From a candidate division WOR-3 bacterium (GTDB taxonomy: Bacteria; Hydrothermota; Tepidihabitantia; SM23-42; JAOAFX01): a stretch of DNA of 23,188 nt. The translations under genes were made by a program, and so were the position numbers. Each line of letters starts with the position of its first letter. The stretch's first letter is position 1. Positions 1 through 20,474 of this stretch are shown here, piece after piece. The stretch is from positions 1 through 23,188 of the forward strand of contig JBDRWI010000037.1 of the NCBI GenBank assembly GCA_039802265.1, read 5' to 3'. The notes under the pieces were generated by a model. The model did no database searches, was not told where the DNA came from, and was given only the letters and a program-made list of their open reading frames with translations.

Positions 1-2310
1 GAATTTTTTATTGGTGGATATATCGGGATATTCCTCATCTGCCGCATAGACGATATAACGAAGCAAGATGCACAACAGTATGCATGCCATCTCCAAAATT
101 TGTTAGATGCTATTTTTGATGAATATACTTTTGACTTAATAAGTAGTGAAGAAATAGAAAAAATTCTAAATCCATTTTCCATCAACCAACTATTCACAAT
201 AACCCGTAGGGTAGGTAGAGAGCGATTAGATATGTTAGGCGGTGGGAGGCATAAGCCACAATTAGGCTTTATTAAAGGTATTGAGTTGAAACAAACCGAT
301 ATTAACTTTCCAACTAATGAAATTCTTCATATCTACCCATTCACCCCCAATTATAGTGATTTTGGCAATCTCTTCAAACTTCTTCTTTTAGAGTCCGCAC
401 CCATAATAGTAAGTATTCGACTCAAACCAACAGTACTTGCAGCAAAAGAAATATACTTCTTAGAGGAACAGATTGCCCGCTGCGAAAAGTATGCTCAAAT
501 TAGCTTGGAGCAGGCTCCGGAAGACTTATCTCTAATTCTACCACCATTGAAAGAACAGGCACACTTATATGAAGGATTCCAGACCCGTCTCTTGTATGGA
601 CTCAAAGATAATGCAGGTATTATGACGATAGAAATAGCATCTCCTGAGAAGATACCCGGGCCGATTATAGACACCCTCGGGACACTAATAACTGAGCCAG
701 CTGGTGGCAAAGAAATGAATGTCTATGAAGTACCGAAACATTATTTGACAGGAGGATATGAAATTTTTGAACTAACAGATAGCCAGCCTGCCATTGAGGC
801 GTTTAAGAAATCGGATATTACAATCATCCCTGATCCCATTGTGCCCCCAGATGCCGTAAGGCTTCCTTATCTTTTTGATTCAATAGAATCTATCGCGGCC
901 TTTCGTTTTCCTCCATCCACTATTGAGGGTTACCCGGGCATCAATTGCCAGAACTGGCGAAGCAAGACAATACCTAAGGATTGTTCTGAGGCTGGATGCT
1001 TCCTCGGTATCAATATCCACCGTGCGAATGCCTTCTCGGTTAGATTGAGTGATGATGACCGTAAGCGCCATATCTATATTGTTGGGCAGACGGGGACCGG
1101 TAAAACAACCATGCTTAAAACTATGATATTGGATGATGTACGTCAAAATAAAGGGTTATGTGTAATTGACCCTCACGGAGATTTATTTAAAGAGTTATTA
1201 GGCAAAATCCCAAAAAACCGAATTCAGGATGTAGTTATATTGGATCCCACAGATATAGATTACCCAGTGGGACTCAATATGCTTGAGTGGGAAAATGAAA
1301 ACCAGCGCTATTTTCTTGCCCAGGAGATGGTCAGTATTATTACTAAGCTGATTGAAGATGAATATGGACCTACAAGTATAGGACAAATTGCTGGGCCAAT
1401 TTTCTTCAATCACATGCGAATGAATCTATTGCTTGTCATGTCTAATCCAGATGACCCCGGCACACTATTAGAGTTTTATAACATATATCAAGAAAGAGAT
1501 TATTGGAAACGATGGATACCGTTGCGCGTCACAGACCAATTATTAGAAAGATGGGTTAGTAATGTCCTCCCTCAGACTGATTACACTAAATCCGGTGGCG
1601 ATAACCCTTCCATGGGTGTCTATATTGGCAGCAAATTTCAAGGTTTTGCGTTTGACCCCCTGCTTCGCAATATATTTGGGCAAAAACATTCGACGATTGA
1701 CCTTAAAATGATTATGGATAAAGGCAAAATTTTACTAGTGAATCTTGCTAAAGGAGAACTCTCTGAGCCTAACTCCAGATTTTTGGGAATGGTTCTTTTA
1801 GCAAAGATTATGGCAACTGCCATGGAAAGGGTAAAGACTCCCGAGCACCAACGGCGAGAATTTAATCTTTATGTCGATGAGTTTCAGAGCCTTGCCACAC
1901 AAAGTTTCATCACTCTCATCTCTGAAGCACGTAAGTTTGGTCTCAGTTTAGTTTTAGCAAATCAATTTATTTCTCAGATCAAAGATGAGAGAATACCATC
2001 AGCAATTTTTGGAAATGTTGGCACCATCATTTGTTTTAGATTGGGTCAAGCCGATGCCGAATATATGCAGCGGGCTTTTTATCCAGTCTTCAATTCTTTT
2101 GACCTAACGAATTTACCCAATTGGCACGCATATATAAAGACTCTTATCAGAGGTCAGGCAGTTGAGCCGTTTAGTATTAAAACAGTTCTTGATACAACAC
2201 CATTTGATGAGCGAATCGTAAAAGAAGTGCGGGTTTCCTCCCGACGACTCTATGGTCGTCCGCGCAGTATAGTAGAAAAAGAGATCGCAAAAAGTTTTGG
2301 TAATATTTAA
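1..2310 (+). CDS. VirD4/TrwB/HerA-like (FtsK-HerA superfamily) P-loop ATPase, type IV coupling-protein-like; 5' end probably outside the window
   Basis: DRKRHIYIVGQTGTGKT (Walker A), IDPHGDL, LYVDEFQ (Walker B), SEARKFGLSLVLANQ. Frame 1 is open from base 1 (EFFIGGYIGIFL...), so the TTG at 100 is probably not the true start. Confidence 0.85.
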   Translation, partial: EFFIGGYIGIFLICRIDDITKQDAQQYACHLQNLLDAIFDEYTFDLISSEEIEKILNPFSINQLFTITRRVGRERLDMLGGGRHKPQLGFIKGIELKQTDINFPTNEILHIYPFTPNYSDFGNLFKLLLLESAPIIVSIRLKPTVLAAKEIYFLEEQIARCEKYAQISLEQAPEDLSLILPPLKEQAHLYEGFQTRLLYGLKDNAGIMTIEIASPEKIPGPIIDTLGTLITEPAGGKEMNVYEVPKHYLTGGYEIFELTDSQPAIEAFKKSDITIIPDPIVPPDAVRLPYLFDSIESIAAFRFPPSTIEGYPGINCQNWRSKTIPKDCSEAGCFLGINIHRANAFSVRLSDDDRKRHIYIVGQTGTGKTTMLKTMILDDVRQNKGLCVIDPHGDLFKELLGKIPKNRIQDVVILDPTDIDYPVGLNMLEWENENQRYFLAQEMVSIITKLIEDEYGPTSIGQIAGPIFFNHMRMNLLLVMSNPDDPGTLLEFYNIYQERDYWKRWIPLRVTDQLLERWVSNVLPQTDYTKSGGDNPSMGVYIGSKFQGFAFDPLLRNIFGQKHSTIDLKMIMDKGKILLVNLAKGELSEPNSRFLGMVLLAKIMATAMERVKTPEHQRREFNLYVDEFQSLATQSFITLISEARKFGLSLVLANQFISQIKDERIPSAIFGNVGTIICFRLGQADAEYMQRAFYPVFNSFDLTNLPNWHAYIKTLIRGQAVEPFSIKTVLDTTPFDERIVKEVRVSSRRLYGRPRSIVEKEIAKSFGNI

Positions 2311-2324
2311 GAAAGGAGTATTTT

Positions 2325-3047
2325 ATGGAAAAGAAATTTACCGAAGCTATGAAATTATTGGAATCTAAGGATTTTATTGGTGCTGAAAAGATTTTTGAAG
2401 AAATCGTAGCGGAGTACCGCGAAATTTTAAAAAAAGGAGATAAAGACTATGTAATTGTAAATTCGCCTCAAGAATTTGCCGATTTATGTAGCAGGCAAAG
2501 TCTATCTTCACTCTTCAGTGGTGCATTTGCCGCTGAAGATAGGAAGCTATATAACGAACTTGAAAGAATGAAAAAAGAAGATCCAGAGTTGGCTAAAGAG
2601 TATGAAAAGATCCAGCAAGGTCTAAATCTTGGCTCAAAATCAACCCGGGAGTTAGCCTGGCTCCCATCAATCTTTTCCGATGCCCAATTTTATGTAGGGT
2701 ATTGTAAATTTGAATTGGGTGATATTGAAGGCGCCATTCTTGCAATCAATGAGGCAATAAAAATGAATCCAACAAAGGGAGATTATTATAACGAATTAGG
2801 ATTCCTTTACGGCAAATCGAAAGATTTCACTCGCTCTAATTTTTATTATAAGAAAGCAATAGAAAAAGATTATCTTAAAGAAAATAAGACAATTGCAAGA
2901 AGTTTGAGGGGGCTTGGATTTAACCTCATTGAACAGGGAAATCTTGATGAGGCTGAAAAGATGCTTAAAAAATCACTTGAACTTGAGCCTCACAATGAAA
3001 CTGCCTTGAATGAGCTCGCTTACATAAAGACATTAAAGGATTTGTAA
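2325..3047 (+). CDS. Tetratricopeptide-repeat protein
   Basis: AAGGAG RBS just upstream; TPR-like units (AQFYVGYCKFELGDIEGAILAINEAIKMNP; YYNELGFLY; SLRGLGFNLIEQGNLDEAEKMLKKSLELEP). Confidence 0.85.
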   Translation: MEKKFTEAMKLLESKDFIGAEKIFEEIVAEYREILKKGDKDYVIVNSPQEFADLCSRQSLSSLFSGAFAAEDRKLYNELERMKKEDPELAKEYEKIQQGLNLGSKSTRELAWLPSIFSDAQFYVGYCKFELGDIEGAILAINEAIKMNPTKGDYYNELGFLYGKSKDFTRSNFYYKKAIEKDYLKENKTIARSLRGLGFNLIEQGNLDEAEKMLKKSLELEPHNETALNELAYIKTLKDL

Positions 3048-3062
3048 AATGGAGTGTTTATA

Positions 3063-4532
3063 ATGAACAATGATTCAAATATTAACGAAATAATTAACAG
3101 AATTAAAATGTTTGAAAGTAAAGGTGAATTAACCACCGCAATTTCTGAGGCTGAAAAGGGGCTTGTTGAATATCCAAGAAATTATAAATTATACGAAAAA
3201 TTGGGTGATTTATATCACAAGGCAGGTCGCCAAAACGAGGCTATTTCTGCATATAAAAATGCCTTAATGATTCATACAGATAATCTGGAAAATCCAGATT
3301 GGATTGCAATAGGCCTATGCAGAGAAATCCTAAAAATAAATCCAGGAGAAACTACAATGCATAGATATTTAGCTGAATTCTATCATAAATTAGGTCACCC
3401 ATACGACGCAGTAATACACTATTGGGAGTATATTATTCAAAATATTGATAATAATAATTTTGAGGCAGTATTGCATACATATGACATTATAAAAAACTTG
3501 GCACCTCCCAATGCGGAAGTTCTGAGAATTATATCTAACATTTACGCTCGCATGGGTAATAGCCAAAAGAGTGCCGAACTTTTAGAAGCAGCGCAAGAGT
3601 GTGAAAAAAGCAACACAGAAGAATTGAATCTCGCTGAACCAATTATAGGGAAAAAAGAAAAAACGAAAGTATGCCCCAAATGTGGATGCGTTAACTGGTG
3701 GTTCGCCATCCGTTGTGTTAAACTTGACTGCCGACAATTCTTATTTGAAAAGACCATGAAGGATGATGAGCTTCCTCTCACGGCACTATCCGGCGAATAT
3801 TGTGGTATGAGATATGTTAATATTGAGATGAAATTTGATAATGCGATCGAATTATTGGAGGAAAAAAAATTTAAGGATGCAAAAAGATTGTTTGACGAAA
3901 TTATTGTTATATATCATGACATCTTGGATAATAATAAAGAAAAGACATTTATTATAGCAAACACAAAAGAAGAATTTGATTTAAGGCGAGCGGAGGCAGA
4001 GTTTAATCAGATAGAATCAGCCTTGGCAGGCAACTCTTTTCCTTCTATGTTCTCTCAAAATTTTATCTGGCTTTCACCAATTTTTTCGGAAGCGCAATTT
4101 TATGCGGGTTATTGTGAATACAAACTTGGCAATGTTAGTTCAGCAGTTTCTATGATAAATAAAGCAATAGAGATGAATCCTACGAGGTCCATTTATTATG
4201 TTTCTTTAGGACAAATTTATGCTGAATTAGGTGATTTTGATAAATCTGACAATTATTATAGAGAAGCAATGAACAAAGACTATCTTAAATCAAAAGAATT
4301 ATTGGCGATGTGTTTAAGAAGATTGGGTTTTAATTGCATTGAAAGGGGAGAATTTGATAAAGCGGAAGAGATGTTTAAAGAGTCTCTTGCTTTTATGGAC
4401 TCTGAGATTGCCTTTAATGTTTTAGGTGACCTCCTTAGATTAGAAATATTTTCAAATAAGATGAAGCCACCGAATGGGTCAGAAAATAAAAATGGTGATA
4501 TATCAAAAAACGAGGATATTATTTTATATTAA
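3063..4532 (+). CDS. TPR protein with a central zinc ribbon and a C-terminal paralogous copy of the upstream TPR protein
   Basis: GGAG at 3051-3054 favours ATG 3063 over GTG 3054; N-terminal TPRs; CPKC-x10-C-x4-C; C-terminal half aligns by eye to the 2325-3047 protein. Confidence 0.8.
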   Translation: MNNDSNINEIINRIKMFESKGELTTAISEAEKGLVEYPRNYKLYEKLGDLYHKAGRQNEAISAYKNALMIHTDNLENPDWIAIGLCREILKINPGETTMHRYLAEFYHKLGHPYDAVIHYWEYIIQNIDNNNFEAVLHTYDIIKNLAPPNAEVLRIISNIYARMGNSQKSAELLEAAQECEKSNTEELNLAEPIIGKKEKTKVCPKCGCVNWWFAIRCVKLDCRQFLFEKTMKDDELPLTALSGEYCGMRYVNIEMKFDNAIELLEEKKFKDAKRLFDEIIVIYHDILDNNKEKTFIIANTKEEFDLRRAEAEFNQIESALAGNSFPSMFSQNFIWLSPIFSEAQFYAGYCEYKLGNVSSAVSMINKAIEMNPTRSIYYVSLGQIYAELGDFDKSDNYYREAMNKDYLKSKELLAMCLRRLGFNCIERGEFDKAEEMFKESLAFMDSEIAFNVLGDLLRLEIFSNKMKPPNGSENKNGDISKNEDIILY

Positions 4533-4577
4533 TTTGGCAGAGAGCCGAAAGAAAAAAATTATCATAAGGAGTCAACT

Positions 4578-4640
4578 ATGATGGGTTTATGGTGGCTTCC
4601 CCCCTTATTTCCCGATGCACAATTCTATAATGGTTTATGA
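4578..4640 (+). CDS. Putative 20-aa peptide MMGLWWLPPLFPDAQFYNGL, or remnant of a third TPR-module repeat
   Basis: AAGGAG at 4566-4571, ATG 4578, TGA 4638-4640 overlapping the next ATG (ATGA); matches the WLPSIFSDAQFYVG motif of the upstream proteins. Confidence 0.45.
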   Translation: MMGLWWLPPLFPDAQFYNGL

Positions 4641-5419
4641 AGATTTTTCCTGATGACAGACATAAACTTAAACGAAAATTTACTAAATTTATGTATGATA
4701 AGTTATCACAAGGTATGGAGATACCTGTAATCTTAACTCACTTTAAGTCAACATTAACTAATAAACAACAGCAGATGTTAATTCAGGAGATAATCAATGA
4801 CCTGAACAATAATGTTCCGGTGGCATTGGTTCTCAAAAAAACAAAATTATTCAATACTTTAGAAATAAATATGCTCACCGCAGGTATTAAGGGTGGGATT
4901 CTTGATTTAGTTTTAAAGTATCTCCTATCATTGGACAGACGAAAAACCTCGCCTTCTGATTTAGAGAAATTTTCATGGATTATGGGACACTTACTTCGCT
5001 CAGGAGTATCTGTGAGGAAGGCAATAAAGTGGTCTGCGGAATGCGTAAGTAGTAAAAAATTTAAAAGTTACCTTTTGGGTTTAAATAAGAAAAAAAAAGA
5101 TATTTTCGAAAATTTGGATAAAAATGCATTTCCTCGGTGGACACGCATAATCTTAGGATTAGGTGAATTGAGTGGAACTATTGAGGAAAGTTTTTTTGCA
5201 GTAGAAAAATTTGCAAGAAAAATTCAAACGAAAAAAACAAATCCACCTGCTGATGGATTAATTTTAAACTACGGACTAAAACATCTTGAGAGTGCTGGAT
5301 TCTCTTATCAATCTGCACTGGTGTCAATGTTAAAATTAGAATTTACTAAGCGACATAAAGACATAATACGGAGTTTACTTCGCAATAAAACTACCGAAAA
5401 GATGGTGCTATTGCACTGA
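4637..5419 (+). CDS. GspF/PilC (T2SSF)-domain protein with two tandem domains and no evident transmembrane helices
   Basis: Two segments resemble the T2SSF consensus: FTKFMYDKLSQGMEI...LFNTLEINMLTAGIKGGILDLVL and LEKFSWIMGHLLRSGVSV...FPRWTRIILGLGELSGTIEESF. Confidence 0.65.
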   Translation: MKIFPDDRHKLKRKFTKFMYDKLSQGMEIPVILTHFKSTLTNKQQQMLIQEIINDLNNNVPVALVLKKTKLFNTLEINMLTAGIKGGILDLVLKYLLSLDRRKTSPSDLEKFSWIMGHLLRSGVSVRKAIKWSAECVSSKKFKSYLLGLNKKKKDIFENLDKNAFPRWTRIILGLGELSGTIEESFFAVEKFARKIQTKKTNPPADGLILNYGLKHLESAGFSYQSALVSMLKLEFTKRHKDIIRSLLRNKTTEKMVLLH

Positions 5420-7693: not shown

Positions 7694-8749
7694 ATGATAG
7701 AAGATAACATAACTTTCTTAAACACCAAGATGGAGATAAAAGACCACCGGGTATTTTTAGGATTTTTTGAAGTCATCGGTAGATTAAATCCACCGGTTGA
7801 AGAGACTATAAAAGAGATAAAGGAATTCTACAGAAATAGCGAATATCTTCCCTTCTTCCTTGAAGAAGAAGGCGAACACATAATCCGCCTTGTTCCGGTA
7901 AGAAAGACCGAAGAAAAACAAAATTACTGGGTGAATATTATATTATTTCTTGGCACAATCCTGACTACCCTCCTTGCTGGTTCAATGAATAGCGGCGGCG
8001 ACCCATTTAAGAATCCCGCTGACCTGCTCAAGGGAATTCCCTTTTCATTATCGCTAATGGCAATACTCACCTGCCATGAACTGGGTCATTACTTTGTCTC
8101 AAAGAGGTTTGGAATGGTAACCACCCTTCCCTATTTTATTCCTGTTCCCTTTCATTTTTTGGGAACCTTCGGAGCAATTATAAAGATGAAATCCTTCGTG
8201 CCATCCCGGAAGGCACTCCTTATGGTCGGCATGTCCGGTCCACTCTGTGGTTTTTTAGTTGCCCTTTTCACCTCAATAATCGGACTTAGCCTTTCTGAGG
8301 CAAAGATAGTTCCAGCCGAGGGTTCTTATCTTAAACTCGGGGATTCCCTTTTGTTCTATCTCTTGGGAAGAATCATCCAACCCAATATACCCGAAGGGGC
8401 AGATATATTCCTGCATCCGGCAGCGTTTGCCGGCTGGATTGGATTTTTAATAACCTCAATGAATCTAATTCCCATTGGGCAGCTTGATGGTGGACACATC
8501 GCCTATAGTTTGTTTTTAAAAAATATGCGCTATCTATACATTCCACTGATTGTTTGCCTGCTTGGTTTTGGAATTCTATGGCCCGGCTGGATAGTCTGGG
8601 GTCTGCTTGCATTCATCCTTACCCGGAGAGAGCCGGTCATTCAGGATACCATTACCCCACTTTCAACCCAGGAGAAACTCCTTGCCCTCGTCCCTTTTTT
8701 TGTCTTGATTCTCACCTTTATTCCGCAACCCTTTAAAATCAGTGCTTGA
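7694..8749 (+). CDS. Site-2 protease (M50) intramembrane zinc metalloprotease
   Basis: HELGH, GTFGAII, SGPLCG, NLIPIGQLDGGHI; multiple hydrophobic segments. Confidence 0.93.
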   Translation: MIEDNITFLNTKMEIKDHRVFLGFFEVIGRLNPPVEETIKEIKEFYRNSEYLPFFLEEEGEHIIRLVPVRKTEEKQNYWVNIILFLGTILTTLLAGSMNSGGDPFKNPADLLKGIPFSLSLMAILTCHELGHYFVSKRFGMVTTLPYFIPVPFHFLGTFGAIIKMKSFVPSRKALLMVGMSGPLCGFLVALFTSIIGLSLSEAKIVPAEGSYLKLGDSLLFYLLGRIIQPNIPEGADIFLHPAAFAGWIGFLITSMNLIPIGQLDGGHIAYSLFLKNMRYLYIPLIVCLLGFGILWPGWIVWGLLAFILTRREPVIQDTITPLSTQEKLLALVPFFVLILTFIPQPFKISA

Positions 8750-8773
8750 CATTGTTTTGAAAATGGATAAAAT
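8746..8773 (+). promoter_or_regulatory. Sigma70-type promoter for the lipoprotein-LysM operon
   Basis: TTGACA (8746-8751), 16 bp, TAAAAT (8768-8773). Confidence 0.7.
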
Positions 8774-8803
8774 TAGACCATCATGAACAGAGGAGGTAAT
8801 TCT

Positions 8804-9064
8804 ATGAAAAGACTCCTGTTTGTATTCCTTCTTGGGATTATCGTAATCGGTTGCGGTCCAAAATGGGCCAAGAAGGAAACGATGGATGCACTTAATGAGG
8901 CGAGGGCGGCACTGCAGGCGGCAGAGAATAGGATCACTGAACTTGAGGCAGAGAAGGCGCAATTAGAACAACAAAAGGCACAATTGAATCAGGAAATTTC
9001 TAATTTGAATAACGAGATCCAGGTGCTTCAGAATAAAATCGACACCCGTTGCAAGAAGAAATAA
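8804..9064 (+). CDS. Small coiled-coil lipoprotein
   Basis: AGGAGG at 8791-8796 points to ATG 8804; MKRLLFVFLLGIIVIG-C lipobox; heptad Leu pattern; ends TRCKKK. Confidence 0.85.
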   Translation: MKRLLFVFLLGIIVIGCGPKWAKKETMDALNEARAALQAAENRITELEAEKAQLEQQKAQLNQEISNLNNEIQVLQNKIDTRCKKK

Positions 9065-9077
9065 TCAGGAGGTAGCG

Positions 9078-9674
9078 ATGAGAAATCTGATAATATTAAT
9101 TCTGGCATTGTTTTTAGTGTTACCGAGCATCGGTGTTTCTCAGGAAAAATTGACCGAGGAGCAGGCACAGGCCGAGCTGGCAAATGTAAGGGCAAAACTT
9201 GCTCAGGCCGAATCCAGGATTGCCCAGCTTCAAGCGGAGATTGAGGCATTAAAATCAGAGATAGAAGGGCTGAAGGCACAAAAAGGAGAATTGGAGGCAA
9301 AACTCGCCGAACTAAAGGAAACCTGGCGGCGCTGCCAGTATGGTCGGTATAGAGTCGTTGAGGGAGACTGGCTTTCCAAGATTGCCAGCATGCGCAAGGT
9401 TTATAGCGATGGCAAAAAATGGCCAATGATTTATGAGGCAAACAAAGACAAAATCAAAAATCCCAATCTGATATACCCGGGGTGGATTTTGCTCATTCCC
9501 AATCTTGAAAACTACACAGTCCTGCCGGGTGATTGTCTCTGGCTCATTGCATCATATCTTTCAATATATTCGGATGCCAAGAGATGGCCCGAAATCTATG
9601 AGGCAAACAAAGACAAGATAAAAGACCCGGACCTGATCTATCCCAAGCAGGTATTTGTTATACCCCAGGAATAA
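9078..9674 (+). CDS. Exported coiled-coil protein with two LysM peptidoglycan-binding domains
   Basis: AGGAGG RBS; signal peptide; heptad coiled coil; YRVVEGDWLSKIA...IYEANKDKIKNPNLIYPGWILLIP and YTVLPGDCLWLIA...IYEANKDKIKDPDLIYPKQVFVIP. Confidence 0.92.
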   Translation: MRNLIILILALFLVLPSIGVSQEKLTEEQAQAELANVRAKLAQAESRIAQLQAEIEALKSEIEGLKAQKGELEAKLAELKETWRRCQYGRYRVVEGDWLSKIASMRKVYSDGKKWPMIYEANKDKIKNPNLIYPGWILLIPNLENYTVLPGDCLWLIASYLSIYSDAKRWPEIYEANKDKIKDPDLIYPKQVFVIPQE

Positions 9675-9678
9675 GGAT

Positions 9679-9726
9679 TAATAGCAGGTAGGAGAATTAT
9701 TGTTAGCAATTTCCTACCTGCTATTA
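9679..9726 (+). terminator. Perfect 15-bp inverted repeat after the LysM gene (terminator or mRNA-stabilising hairpin)
   Basis: TAATAGCAGGTAGGA (9679-9693) and TCCTACCTGCTATTA (9712-9726); no clear U-tract. Confidence 0.6.
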
Positions 9727-9747: not shown

Positions 9748-10653
9748 ATGAAATCATTTATTTCAATCGGTGATATTGACCCTGCGATACTTCTGGGTCT
9801 TCAGGATGAATTGCTCAAAAAATTGAAAGAGAGATTTGGTGTAATTGCAGTAATGAGGGATGACACAATCTATCTAAAGGGAAATGAAGCCCAGATAAAG
9901 AATGCAAAATTATTTATCCAGGATATCATTAAAGATGTAACAGCAGGGAAATCAGTCAATTATGATTCAACAACGGAAAAGGCTGAAGTTGAAGAGGATT
10001 CAATTACTACACCCAAACGCCTGATAAAGGCAAAAAGCCCGGGTCAGGCAAATTATATAAGGGCAATTGATAACTACGACATTGTTGTGAGTATAGGTCC
10101 AGCCGGAACAGGCAAGACCTATCTCGGCGTAGCAAAGGCAGTTTCTTATCTTATGGATAAAAGGGTGGAAAGGATAATCCTTACCCGACCGGCTGTGGAA
10201 GCCGGCGAATCCTTGGGCTATCTTCCCGGGGCAATTGAGGAAAAGGTTGACCCATATCTAAGGCCACTCTACGACGCACTGAATGATTTTTTGCCCTTTG
10301 ATAGGGTAAGAAAATACCTTGATATGAAGGTGATTGAAGTTGCACCCCTTGCCTATATGCGGGGCAGAACCCTTAATGATGCCTTTATTATCCTTGATGA
10401 GGCGCAGAATACAACAAGTATGCAGATGAAGATGTTTCTAACCAGAATGGGATGGCGCTCAAAAATGGTGGTCACTGGTGATATTACGCAGATTGACCTT
10501 CCCTCAAATGTCTTTTCTGGACTCATTGAAATCCAGCATCTATTGAAGAATATAAAAGGCATAGAGTTTATTTACCTCACTGAGCAGGATGTAGTAAGAC
10601 ACCGAATTGTCCAGGAAATCATCCGCGCCTATGAAACTAAAAATTCCTCATAA
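9748..10653 (+). CDS. phoH: PhoH-family ATPase (YbeZ/PhoH-like)
   Basis: GPAGTGKTY, ILTRPAVEAGESLGYLPG, APLAYMRGRTL, ILDEAQN, VTGDITQIDL, DVVRH. Confidence 0.96.
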   Translation: MKSFISIGDIDPAILLGLQDELLKKLKERFGVIAVMRDDTIYLKGNEAQIKNAKLFIQDIIKDVTAGKSVNYDSTTEKAEVEEDSITTPKRLIKAKSPGQANYIRAIDNYDIVVSIGPAGTGKTYLGVAKAVSYLMDKRVERIILTRPAVEAGESLGYLPGAIEEKVDPYLRPLYDALNDFLPFDRVRKYLDMKVIEVAPLAYMRGRTLNDAFIILDEAQNTTSMQMKMFLTRMGWRSKMVVTGDITQIDLPSNVFSGLIEIQHLLKNIKGIEFIYLTEQDVVRHRIVQEIIRAYETKNSS

Positions 10654-18460: not shown

Positions 18461-19924
18461 GTGCAAAGTGAAGTAAGGGTCAGAATTGCACCAAGTCCAA
18501 CTGGTTTTTTTCATATCGGCAGTGCCCGAACCGCATTGTATAATTGGCTTTTTGCAAGAAAAAATCAAGGTAGATTTATCCTGAGAATTGAGGATACCGA
18601 TATCACCCGTTCATCAAAGGAGATGACCGGGGTGATATTTGATTCACTAACCTGGCTTGGACTTGACTGGGATGAAGGTCCGCTCAAGGGTGGTGATTAT
18701 GGTCCGTATTATCAATCCGAGCGCCGTCAAATCTATCACGAATATGTTCAGAAACTTCTCAGAGATAATAAGGCGTACTGGTGTTACTGTACGCCGGATG
18801 AAATTGCAAATGAAAGGAATGAATATCTACAAAAAGGCCTGAACTGGCAACACCGTTGTCGTGAAAAATATTCAATTGATGAAATTGAAAAAAGGAAAAA
18901 GAATGGTATAATTCCGGCATTACGTTTTGCTGTTCCCAGTGACAAAAAAATTGTATTCAATGACCTTATTCATGGAACGGTAGAAAAGATGTCTTCAGAC
19001 CTTGAGGATTTCGTCATCTTAAAGAGTGATGGTATGCCCACCTACAACTTCGCCTGTGTTATTGATGACCATTTAATGAGAATCAGCCATATTATAAGAG
19101 GAGTTGAACACATCGCCAATACTCCAAAACAAATTTTACTTTACGAGGCATTCAATTTTCCAATCCCGGCCTTTGCCCATCTACCGGTCATACTGGGCAC
19201 AGACAAAAAGAAGCTTTCCAAGAGGCTTGGTGCCCGTTCGGTTCTGGACTATAAAAATGAAGGCTATCTTGCCCAGGCACTGGTCAATTTCCTCGCGCTT
19301 TTGGGCTGGTCACCCGGTTCTAATGAAGAGATAATGGACCTTGAAGATATGGTAAAGACCTTCTCACTAAACCGGATAAACCCGGCAAATGCAATCTATG
19401 ATGAGAAGAGACTGGAATGGATGAATAACCATTATATCATCAACCGTATCCAGGAAGAAGAATTCCTGAATTTAGTAAAACCTTTTGTGCTCAAATCTGG
19501 ATTGATTAATGAAGATGAATATAAGAAAAACGAGGCTTGGGTTAATAAGGTCTGCCTTCTAATGCGGCCAAGATTGAAGGTTCTGGGTGATATTAAGTCA
19601 GCCCGCTATTTCTTCCGCGAGGACTTCGAATACGAAAAAGAAGTTTTAAGAAAATATCTTGAACCAACCGTGTTACAAAATATAAAAGGATTCAGAGAGG
19701 AGATTGAAAAACTTCCCGAGTTTACTGCCTCAAATATTGAAAAAAGCCTGAGGGAATTTGCTACAAAAAACAGTATAAAGGCAAGAGAGCTGATTCATCC
19801 GTTGAGGGTCTTCCTTACCGGTACCGATGCCGGACCCGGTCTTTTTGAAACAATGGAGTTAATTGGTAAAGAAAGATGCCTGCTGCGGATTGAAAGAATA
19901 CTGAAAAAATATGAAAACAAATGA
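18461..19924 (+). CDS. gltX: Glutamate--tRNA ligase
   Basis: VRIAPSPTGFFHIGS, FILRIEDTD, WLGLDWDEGP, PTYNFACVIDD, KKLSKR; GAGGT before GTG start. Confidence 0.97.
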   Translation: MQSEVRVRIAPSPTGFFHIGSARTALYNWLFARKNQGRFILRIEDTDITRSSKEMTGVIFDSLTWLGLDWDEGPLKGGDYGPYYQSERRQIYHEYVQKLLRDNKAYWCYCTPDEIANERNEYLQKGLNWQHRCREKYSIDEIEKRKKNGIIPALRFAVPSDKKIVFNDLIHGTVEKMSSDLEDFVILKSDGMPTYNFACVIDDHLMRISHIIRGVEHIANTPKQILLYEAFNFPIPAFAHLPVILGTDKKKLSKRLGARSVLDYKNEGYLAQALVNFLALLGWSPGSNEEIMDLEDMVKTFSLNRINPANAIYDEKRLEWMNNHYIINRIQEEEFLNLVKPFVLKSGLINEDEYKKNEAWVNKVCLLMRPRLKVLGDIKSARYFFREDFEYEKEVLRKYLEPTVLQNIKGFREEIEKLPEFTASNIEKSLREFATKNSIKARELIHPLRVFLTGTDAGPGLFETMELIGKERCLLRIERILKKYENK

Positions 19925-20474
19925 GAAAAAAAGAATACAGAATAAACCGATTGAAGCATATCTGAATCTACCGGCATTTTTAGCGATTGTCTCATCTTCA
20001 GTAGAGGCATTTAAAAAAGAGACCATTGGTTATCTTATTGGAATAAAGGGAGAAAATAAATTCATTGTTGAATATGCTATACCGTATCAAACTGCGGATA
20101 GTGGTTTTGCCCATGTGACAATTGATTTTAAGAGGGTGGAGCGAGTTAATAAAATCCTTACGCGCCTCTCCGGGGGCCTTGAGTATATTGGTGACTTCCA
20201 TTCCCACACGATATTTGGCAATGTTCCGGCAAAGATAATCCCTTCAAGTGAAGACCTGATGACCTCGGTAGCCGGCGAATTGAATCTTATCTGTGCAGTC
20301 AATACCAAAAAAAGAGCGATAAAGTGGTATGAAACCAAAACAGGAATACTTGTAGGAACAATTGATGACTACCGCATTGAAATTGGTGGTTTTTATGTTC
20401 CCAGACCGGCAATCGGAAGAAAATATCGGCGGGTAAGGGTAAGGTGCCCGGCGATTACCGGACTTGAGACCTGA
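19911..20474 (+). CDS. JAB/MPN (JAMM)-domain putative metalloisopeptidase
   Basis: N-terminal Glu (KKETIGYLIG) and YIGDFHSHT...PSSEDL, matching E...HSH...SxxD. Confidence 0.75.
   Translation: MKTNEKKRIQNKPIEAYLNLPAFLAIVSSSVEAFKKETIGYLIGIKGENKFIVEYAIPYQTADSGFAHVTIDFKRVERVNKILTRLSGGLEYIGDFHSHTIFGNVPAKIIPSSEDLMTSVAGELNLICAVNTKKRAIKWYETKTGILVGTIDDYRIEIGGFYVPRPAIGRKYRRVRVRCPAITGLET

Follow-up and report, generated by a model that had tools for sequence, protein, structure and literature searches.

A paired coiled-coil lipoprotein and LysM protein of WOR-3 bacteria and allied phyla as a candidate strut between membrane and cell wall

We analysed two adjacent genes, here termed A and B, within the window (the whole stretch of 23,188 nucleotides of DNA under analysis, from a candidate division WOR-3 bacterium). 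The best combined explanation of our data, to which we assign a probability of roughly 0.6, is that their products form a heteromeric rod serving as a strut between membrane and wall. That A and B form a parallel heteromeric coiled-coil rod is itself very strongly favoured. In the proposed mechanism, the two chains would be ancient paralogues whose helices pair obligately into a heteromeric coil, parallel and in register, of about 9 nm; A would provide the N-terminal lipid anchor, and at the opposite end B would grip peptidoglycan non-covalently through one or two LysM domains. Buried core lysines of A, together with complementary flanking charges, would favour A:B over A:A. An optional Cys pair, gained or relocated many times, would staple the chains, most likely as a disulfide formed without the standard Dsb enzymes, and the rod would act as a structural strut from the membrane (probably the outer one) to the wall.

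Organization of the locus

An earlier sequence-only reading of this DNA had proposed both ORFs, a dedicated promoter, Shine-Dalgarno sequences for both genes and a 3′ hairpin. Both ORFs lie where that reading had placed them, both Shine-Dalgarno sequences were found (Table 1), and A and B are each single-copy in this assembly. The number of promoter-like sites within this region was at the chance level (5 versus 5.2 expected); a site matching at least 10 of 12 consensus positions was present upstream of A in 88 of 103 WOR-3 loci, compared with 5 and 3 in two controls. The stem of the hairpin was also confirmed, its stability being equalled by none of 200 shuffles, though it lacks the canonical U-run and was not listed by the terminator scan. 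A PhoH motif was detected downstream of B in 97 of 105 WOR-3 loci, and phoH was retained in all five genomes without the A/B pair; this gene is probably context and not part of the A/B device.

Table 1. Features of the A/B locus (positions in the window)
Feature	Position	Strand	Basis or remark
Promoter-like site, sigma-70-type	8746..8773	+	11/12 consensus
Shine-Dalgarno, gene A	8789..8796	+	sequence
Gene A, 86-aa lipoprotein, one long coiled-coil helix	8804..9064	+	
Shine-Dalgarno, gene B	9067..9072	+	sequence
Gene B, 198 aa: signal peptide, coiled coil, two LysM	9078..9674	+	
Coiled-coil helix of B, about 60 residues, ending in Cys86 (codon 9333)	9156..9335	+	AlphaFold2 model
LysM domain 1 of B	9348..9500	+	
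LysM domain 2 of B, with unpaired Cys153	9513..9665	+	
Long 3′ hairpin, terminator or RNA-stabilizing stem	9679..9726	+	−24.9 kcal/mol, z −6.3
phoH, usual neighbour downstream of B	9748..10653	+	context

The lipobox Cys17 of A is encoded at codon 8852 and Cys83 at codon 9050, and two core a positions are occupied by Lys. In the profile search, no Pfam or NCBIfam family scored above its cut-off among the matches listed for A, and Pfam LPP was absent among the families listed for 77 A members. For B, the signal peptide cleavage site was placed by eye near residue 21. The LysM domains were recognized by Pfam (E 1.6e-14; 54 bits versus a cut-off of 20.9), and the predicted structure of this part resembles solved LysM domains. 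The division of a lipobox on one chain and two LysM domains on the other stands as first proposed. Cys153 in the second LysM domain (window 9534–9536) has no partner in B, and its motif occurs in 46 of 67 two-LysM forms.

Two other regions of the window were recorded. At positions 100–5419, a gene for a TrwB/HerA-type ATPase precedes those for two TPR proteins and one with a T2SSF domain, and at positions 19911–20474 a prokaryotic JAB-domain gene (by profile) overlaps the end of a glutamate-tRNA ligase-like gene (by eye). Contig depth (22.5 and 28.6 over the pair versus 2–11 over the flanks, in two sets) was considered as a measure of expression and set aside, being a poor one and coming from what are probably DNA libraries. 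The one raw RNA run placed no reads.

Proposed pairing of the two coils

The coils of A and B aligned without gaps, sharing Leu at positions 4, 14, 21, 28, 35 and 42, with core residues (A/B) of K/I at 18 and 25 and I/K at 32. The gapless alignment, the Leu residues from 14 to 42, the complementary core and the Cys at 50 versus 49 had all been described in the sequence-only reading and were recovered here. The terminal cysteines, which had been called matching, are indeed present in both chains but are offset by one position, lying at e in A and d in B. Shared Leu spacing is expected for any two coiled coils, and the real evidence therefore comes from the comparison across genomes.

The AlphaFold2 model of B consists of an unbroken 60-residue helix (mean pLDDT 93.5) followed by two LysM folds. 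A helix of this length gives a rod of about 9 nm, which replaces the earlier estimate of 50 residues and 7.5 nm. The 1:1 complex model of A and B scored 0.73 versus 0.15 for the best control, although the controls were unrelated proteins instead of decoy coils and structure models pair coiled coils easily; the score mark was reached by 116 of 157 solved pairs and by 2 of 215 mismatched pairs. The runs shared at least 99% of contacts, and the partner pLDDT was at least 90. The modelled complex is parallel and in the same register as the column alignment, and both cysteines are within the interface list. The complex model thus supports A:B binding, and, in conjunction with the cross-genome data, it agrees with the earlier proposal of a parallel in-register rod that carries lipid and LysM at opposite ends. 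A search of solved structures with the A profile returned generic coiled coils only. The a positions of both coils are occupied by Ile, Leu or Lys and the d positions by Leu, a pattern that is the signature of a two-stranded coil, and from this pattern the A/B coil is most likely a 1:1 dimer.

Partner preference was also seen in the charges. Among 195 pairs, basic–basic clashes at a positions numbered 265 for A:A and 86 for B:B but 0 for cognate A:B, compared with 6.1 after shuffling. The mean e–g′ charge score was −2.89 for cognate A:B, while the non-cognate score was −0.40 (the cognate value was reached in 0 of 3000 shuffles) and those of A:A and B:B were −0.30 and −0.06, respectively. The same charge result was obtained with 87 de-replicated pairs. 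In their flanking charges as in their core lysines, the chains are complementary to the cognate partner alone. For the window's own pair, the charge scores were 0 for A:A, −3 for A:B and −6 for B:B; the last of these is favoured over A:B, so that B homodimers could form here. The A sequence disfavours A:A and looks two-stranded, the complex having been modelled at 1:1 only. Coil lengths were expected to co-vary between the chains; the correlation was positive (Spearman 0.58, 31 families) but modest, and the lengths vary little.

Cysteine positions were compared in columns counted from the helix caps, a register later matched by the complex model. The terminal pair at columns 61/60 was detected in all 40 pairs of families f1, f2 and f4, and in those families only. 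These terminal cysteines are lineage-specific, and the Cys pair moves jointly in both chains. Among 106 WOR-3 pairs, 81 carry Cys in the same column or one apart, 19 in neither chain and 5 in A only, and 1 is unmatched; the common sites are columns 11 or 12/11, 15/14, 18, 25, 42, 46, 53 and 61/60. When distinct WOR-3 patterns were counted, 11 of 15 matched, compared with a shuffle mean of 1.6 and a maximum of 9 in 100,000. Outside WOR-3, 127 loci yielded 89 anchored pairs (among the others, the script called no A in 26, while B was missing from 2 and lacked an anchor in 10). In the same register, 51 of these matched (50 by script, plus L142 re-anchored by hand) and 37 had no Cys; in the remaining pair, the N-terminal part of B contains a Cys whose counterpart in A lies two residues past the lipid Cys. 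In a row that was dropped (L277), only B carries Cys. The 61 loci of Ignavibacteriales gave 56 pairs, with five A anchors corrected by eye, and all 56 have Cys in both chains: at 46/45 in 34, at 46/43 (three columns apart) in 19, at 25/25 in 2 and at 46/46 in 1.

Taken together, 188 of the 251 pooled pairs share a common coil Cys site, whereas Cys is absent from 57 and confined to A in 6, a count that treats columns 43, 45 and 46 as one site; the co-conservation on which the sequence-only reading depended was thus observed. A separate N-terminal Cys pair occurs in both chains in 5 of the 251 and in one chain alone in none. On a FastTree tree of 107 B proteins, with coil Cys masked and two LysM-less rows excluded, changes of Cys site numbered 23 in A, 20 in B and 24 jointly. 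Independent contrasts on this tree gave 5/5 for site 25, 3/3 for site 11 and approximately 5.6/6 for any Cys (p 0.03–0.06); the supported contrasts are few, and none is in the opposite direction. The same reading had held that unlinked genes, homo-oligomers only, or a failure of Cys or coil lengths to be conserved together would speak against it, and none of these was found in the computable data. In four loci of Eisenbacteria and Krumholzibacteriota (L137, L138, L145 and L150), a Cys in the proline-rich linker of A is accompanied by a Cys in the first helix of B, possibly a further staple.

Linkage, spread and origin of the pair

Matches to B were detected in 146 of 251 WOR-3 genomes at E 1e-15. 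From these genomes 110 loci were taken (30 best matches and 80 hand-picked across families), and four were excluded, with A off the contig in two, B cut in one and a BON-LysM paralogue in one; N-terminal motifs served to place 24 anchors manually. A adjoins B in all 106 remaining WOR-3 loci, and the linkage extends to other groups, as had been anticipated. Beyond WOR-3, the pair is present in some ten allied groups, Ignavibacteria among them; record labels place it in Delongbacteria, Zixibacteria, KSB1, Calditrichota, Latescibacterota, Gemmatimonadota, Eisenbacteria, Krumholzibacteriota, Coatesbacteria, Kryptonia, Kapabacteria and Ignavibacteriales, the last including the isolate Rosettibacter primus. 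The ESM Atlas contains unnamed clusters from WOR-3, Ignavibacteriota and Bacteroidota; rows from Acidobacteriota and Methylomirabilota at 0.85 count as no more than leads. One WOR-3 bin includes a 1.7-kb contig with a pair of the Kapabacteria type (L414, G237:C82), probably through bin contamination. We found no published description of the pair, although subscription papers and supplements could hold one.

Within the same class, families f7, f9, f11, f12 and f13 yielded no such pair, and no A or B gene was detected near phoH in five pair-less genomes. Weak A-profile matches in f7 and f12 turned out to be other proteins. No link between loss of the pair and loss of the wall or of lipoprotein transport was seen: the pair-less genomes checked keep LolA (5/5) and MurE (4/4). 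Short coiled-coil lipoproteins with Gly/Lys-rich tails in pair-less genomes of f7 (L412 and L413) represent a possible substitute.

Several variant forms were also detected. B lacks LysM in two genomes of family f3 that keep the pair (L039 in G016 and L040 in G018, from two genera); here, the C-terminus of B is a short hydrophobic tail with Trp as its last residue, and coil Cys is absent from both chains. The first of these genomes retains MurE. In L082 (G099), a 124-aa ORF (378–750) with a DTG motif, which we take to be aspartyl-protease-like, lies between A and B, and both genes share the same short N-terminal start, suggesting an insertion with duplication. The long form of B (L130–L189 and L191–L344) carries an extra helical insert of approximately 85 residues between coil and LysM; this insert occurs in Ignavibacteria, KSB1, Latescibacterota and Zixibacteria, and some inserts contain further cysteines. 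A-type lipoproteins fused to LysM were noted at L088, L100 (G060), L090, L104 and L105, and G060 has two loci, one of them ordered B then A-LysM.

With respect to origin, alignment of the A profile with that of B starts at the helix cap and covers 63 columns, with a probability of 97.6%. The lipoprotein itself carries LysM in four WOR-3 genomes (G158, G139, G148 and G060), while in Krumholzibacteriota and part of the Eisenbacteria the B protein, too, is a lipoprotein. We infer a duplicated ancestor with lipid anchor, coil and LysM, the copies of which may then have divided the two jobs. This paralogy also suits the view that A and B are tandem paralogues forming separate homo-oligomers, with matching cysteines derived from ancestry or gene conversion, a view for which the favourable B:B charge in this genome and the homodimeric disulfides made by Salmonella LppB, according to the available part of 10.1101/2025.11.13.688167, could also be cited. 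Such an arrangement is nevertheless very improbable, given that cognate chains are hardly more alike than non-cognate chains (21% versus 19% identity) and no more alike near the shared Cys (20% versus 19% elsewhere); gene conversion is thus a poor explanation of the matched cysteines. In addition, several matched Cys pairs are at non-homologous positions, and the charge complementarity is specific to the cognate partner.

Probable chemistry, placement and role of the proposed heteromeric rod

The matched cysteines of the heteromeric rod probably form a disulfide. DSBA, DsbB and VKOR were each detected in 0 of 25 relatives, and Thioredoxin_4 (DsbA-like) in 0 of 10 cross-phylum genomes; VKOR was present in one of these 10, a Kryptonia genome whose A/B pair has no Cys. 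With no DsbA, DsbB or VKOR found, a disulfide would need proximity or an undescribed route to form. A bias toward even numbers of Cys serves as a disulfide marker (available part of PMC5403849); in a crude set of exported proteins, assessed with no positive control, no such bias was observed (83 even, 91 odd). Both of these results would also fit cysteines that stay reduced or form a metal clamp, that is, a Cys3/Cys4 layer in a trimer or an A2B2 bundle. Cys layers in coiled coils bind metals, and the a positions at which Cys occurs with no partner, column 15 of A and columns 36 and 43 of B, hint at more than two chains. We nevertheless regard the clamp or reduced state as unlikely, since the core pattern is that of two strands, and the one-off pairs (e/d and a/g) and the N-terminal pair outside the helix suit a two-chain disulfide. 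Moreover, the 57 Cys-free pairs indicate that Cys is not a needed site.

Several features bear on the anchoring of the A:B rod. The lipobox Cys17 was invariant in 77 of 77 aligned A proteins, although these rows were chosen on that feature. A is predicted to be lipidated at this Cys, the signal peptide of B to be cleaved and the LysM domains of B to bind peptidoglycan non-covalently. It is reasonably likely that the rod is a membrane-to-wall strut, and location of A in the outer instead of the inner membrane is somewhat favoured. The genome encodes LolA and three Omp85 proteins. A Pal-like protein (114.9 bits versus a cut-off of 125) was detected as well, along with eight OmpA domains; these could already serve as tethers, so that the A:B rod would be an additional one. 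The sequence-only reading had likened the C-terminal KKK of A to the cross-linked terminal Lys of Lpp, a comparison that we abandoned. Terminal K is found in 75 of 106 WOR-3 pairs (Y in nearly all of one clade), in 36 of 89 outside WOR-3 and in 28 of 56 Ignavibacteriales, and is thus not conserved. YkuD L,D-transpeptidase was not found in this genome (89% complete) or in the single-contig relatives G019, G025 and G027, which keep the terminal K; it was found in 45 of 71 class genomes.

An inner-membrane location, with the rod as a strut to the wall or as a scaffold for wall synthesis or division, is unlikely, although the sorting of A is not fixed by the data: at +2, A mostly carries G, S or T, and its sorting need not follow the enterobacterial rule. 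Both N-termini lie at one end of the complex model, so that the rod would sit in the inner membrane if the signal of B stayed uncleaved, but this signal ends in a conserved Ala-Gln-Glu-type motif and appears cleavable by eye. The weak matches to FtsL and DivIC profiles (17–23 bits versus cut-offs of 29–50) are far under the cut-offs and typical of any coil, and A has a lipobox, unlike bitopic FtsL/FtsB. LolA is present, and the neighbours are phoH and ybeY-like genes, not division genes. Somewhat less likely again is a regulatory or scaffolding device that bears no load and acts in hydrolase recruitment, distance sensing or LysM display. The other tethers in the genome, the lack of detection of the pair in several related families and the helical insert of long B forms, which could bind partners, are compatible with such a role. 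On the other hand, the pair has no catalytic domain and, apart from phoH, no accompanying partner gene, and its strong conserved promoter, near-constant rod length and repeated stapling fit a structural part. We therefore retain the heteromeric rod as a strut as the preferred reading.

A wider proposal can be advanced only tentatively, at somewhat less than even odds: that the pair represents a fifth, undescribed outer-membrane tether beside Lpp, Pal, OmpA and OmpM, a Cys-locked split ruler of WOR-3, Ignavibacteria and allied phyla. The interchain disulfide would then have arisen or moved about twenty times in lineages with no detected Dsb oxidase, which, if true, implies self-formed disulfides or an unknown oxidation route; the pair thus raises the question of disulfide formation in envelopes where Dsb enzymes were not found. 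Lpp is reported to be restricted to a gammaproteobacterial subclade (available part of 10.1101/2021.05.31.446380), and the A/B pair, carried by a cultured isolate, is a concrete candidate for setting membrane–wall spacing in many of the other diderm phyla. With its Cys staple at nine positions, the pair also documents co-evolution between two molecules with unusual clarity.

Among the closest known systems is Braun's lipoprotein, Lpp. It is trimeric, and its length sets the spacing between membrane and wall (available part of PMC5736177). Like Lpp, A is a small N-lipidated coiled coil of similar length with a proposed spacer role. Unlike Lpp, the A/B system comprises two different chains, would bind the wall non-covalently via LysM on B and needs neither a terminal Lys nor an L,D-transpeptidase. 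With the Lpp/OprI profile NF040598, A of the window scored 16.4 bits and a Kryptonia A 23.5 bits, versus a cut-off of 43. By analogy, A/B would work like Lpp yet stand outside the Lpp family. Salmonella LppA and LppB are tandem paralogous coiled-coil proteins forming heterotrimers with a C-terminal Cys disulfide; the link is LppB–LppB between trimers, and both chains are Lys-cross-linked lipoproteins (available part of 10.1101/2025.11.13.688167). A and B are likewise tandem paralogous coils, predicted to hetero-oligomerize and furnished with a cysteine pair, but their putative A–B link shifts along the coil between lineages, and the anchor and wall jobs are split.

The LysM subtype of B is that of spirochaete LipL71 (Leptospira). 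The LipL71 model matched the LysM part of B at E 8e-34, and the family model gave 117 bits versus a cut-off of 600, the match being confined to LysM. In Borrelia, BB0323 (partner BB0238) binds peptidoglycan and stabilizes the outer membrane, while deletion of its LysM left outer-membrane organization unaffected (available part of PMC5462797). The spirochaete matches were larger single proteins, and no A-type gene was present at the four loci inspected. Pal, OmpA and OmpM also link the outer membrane to the wall non-covalently, but they are single polypeptides with OmpA-like or SLH domains, with neither LysM nor a two-gene coil. In the available main text of a survey of four tether systems (10.1101/2021.05.31.446380), LysM is unmentioned.
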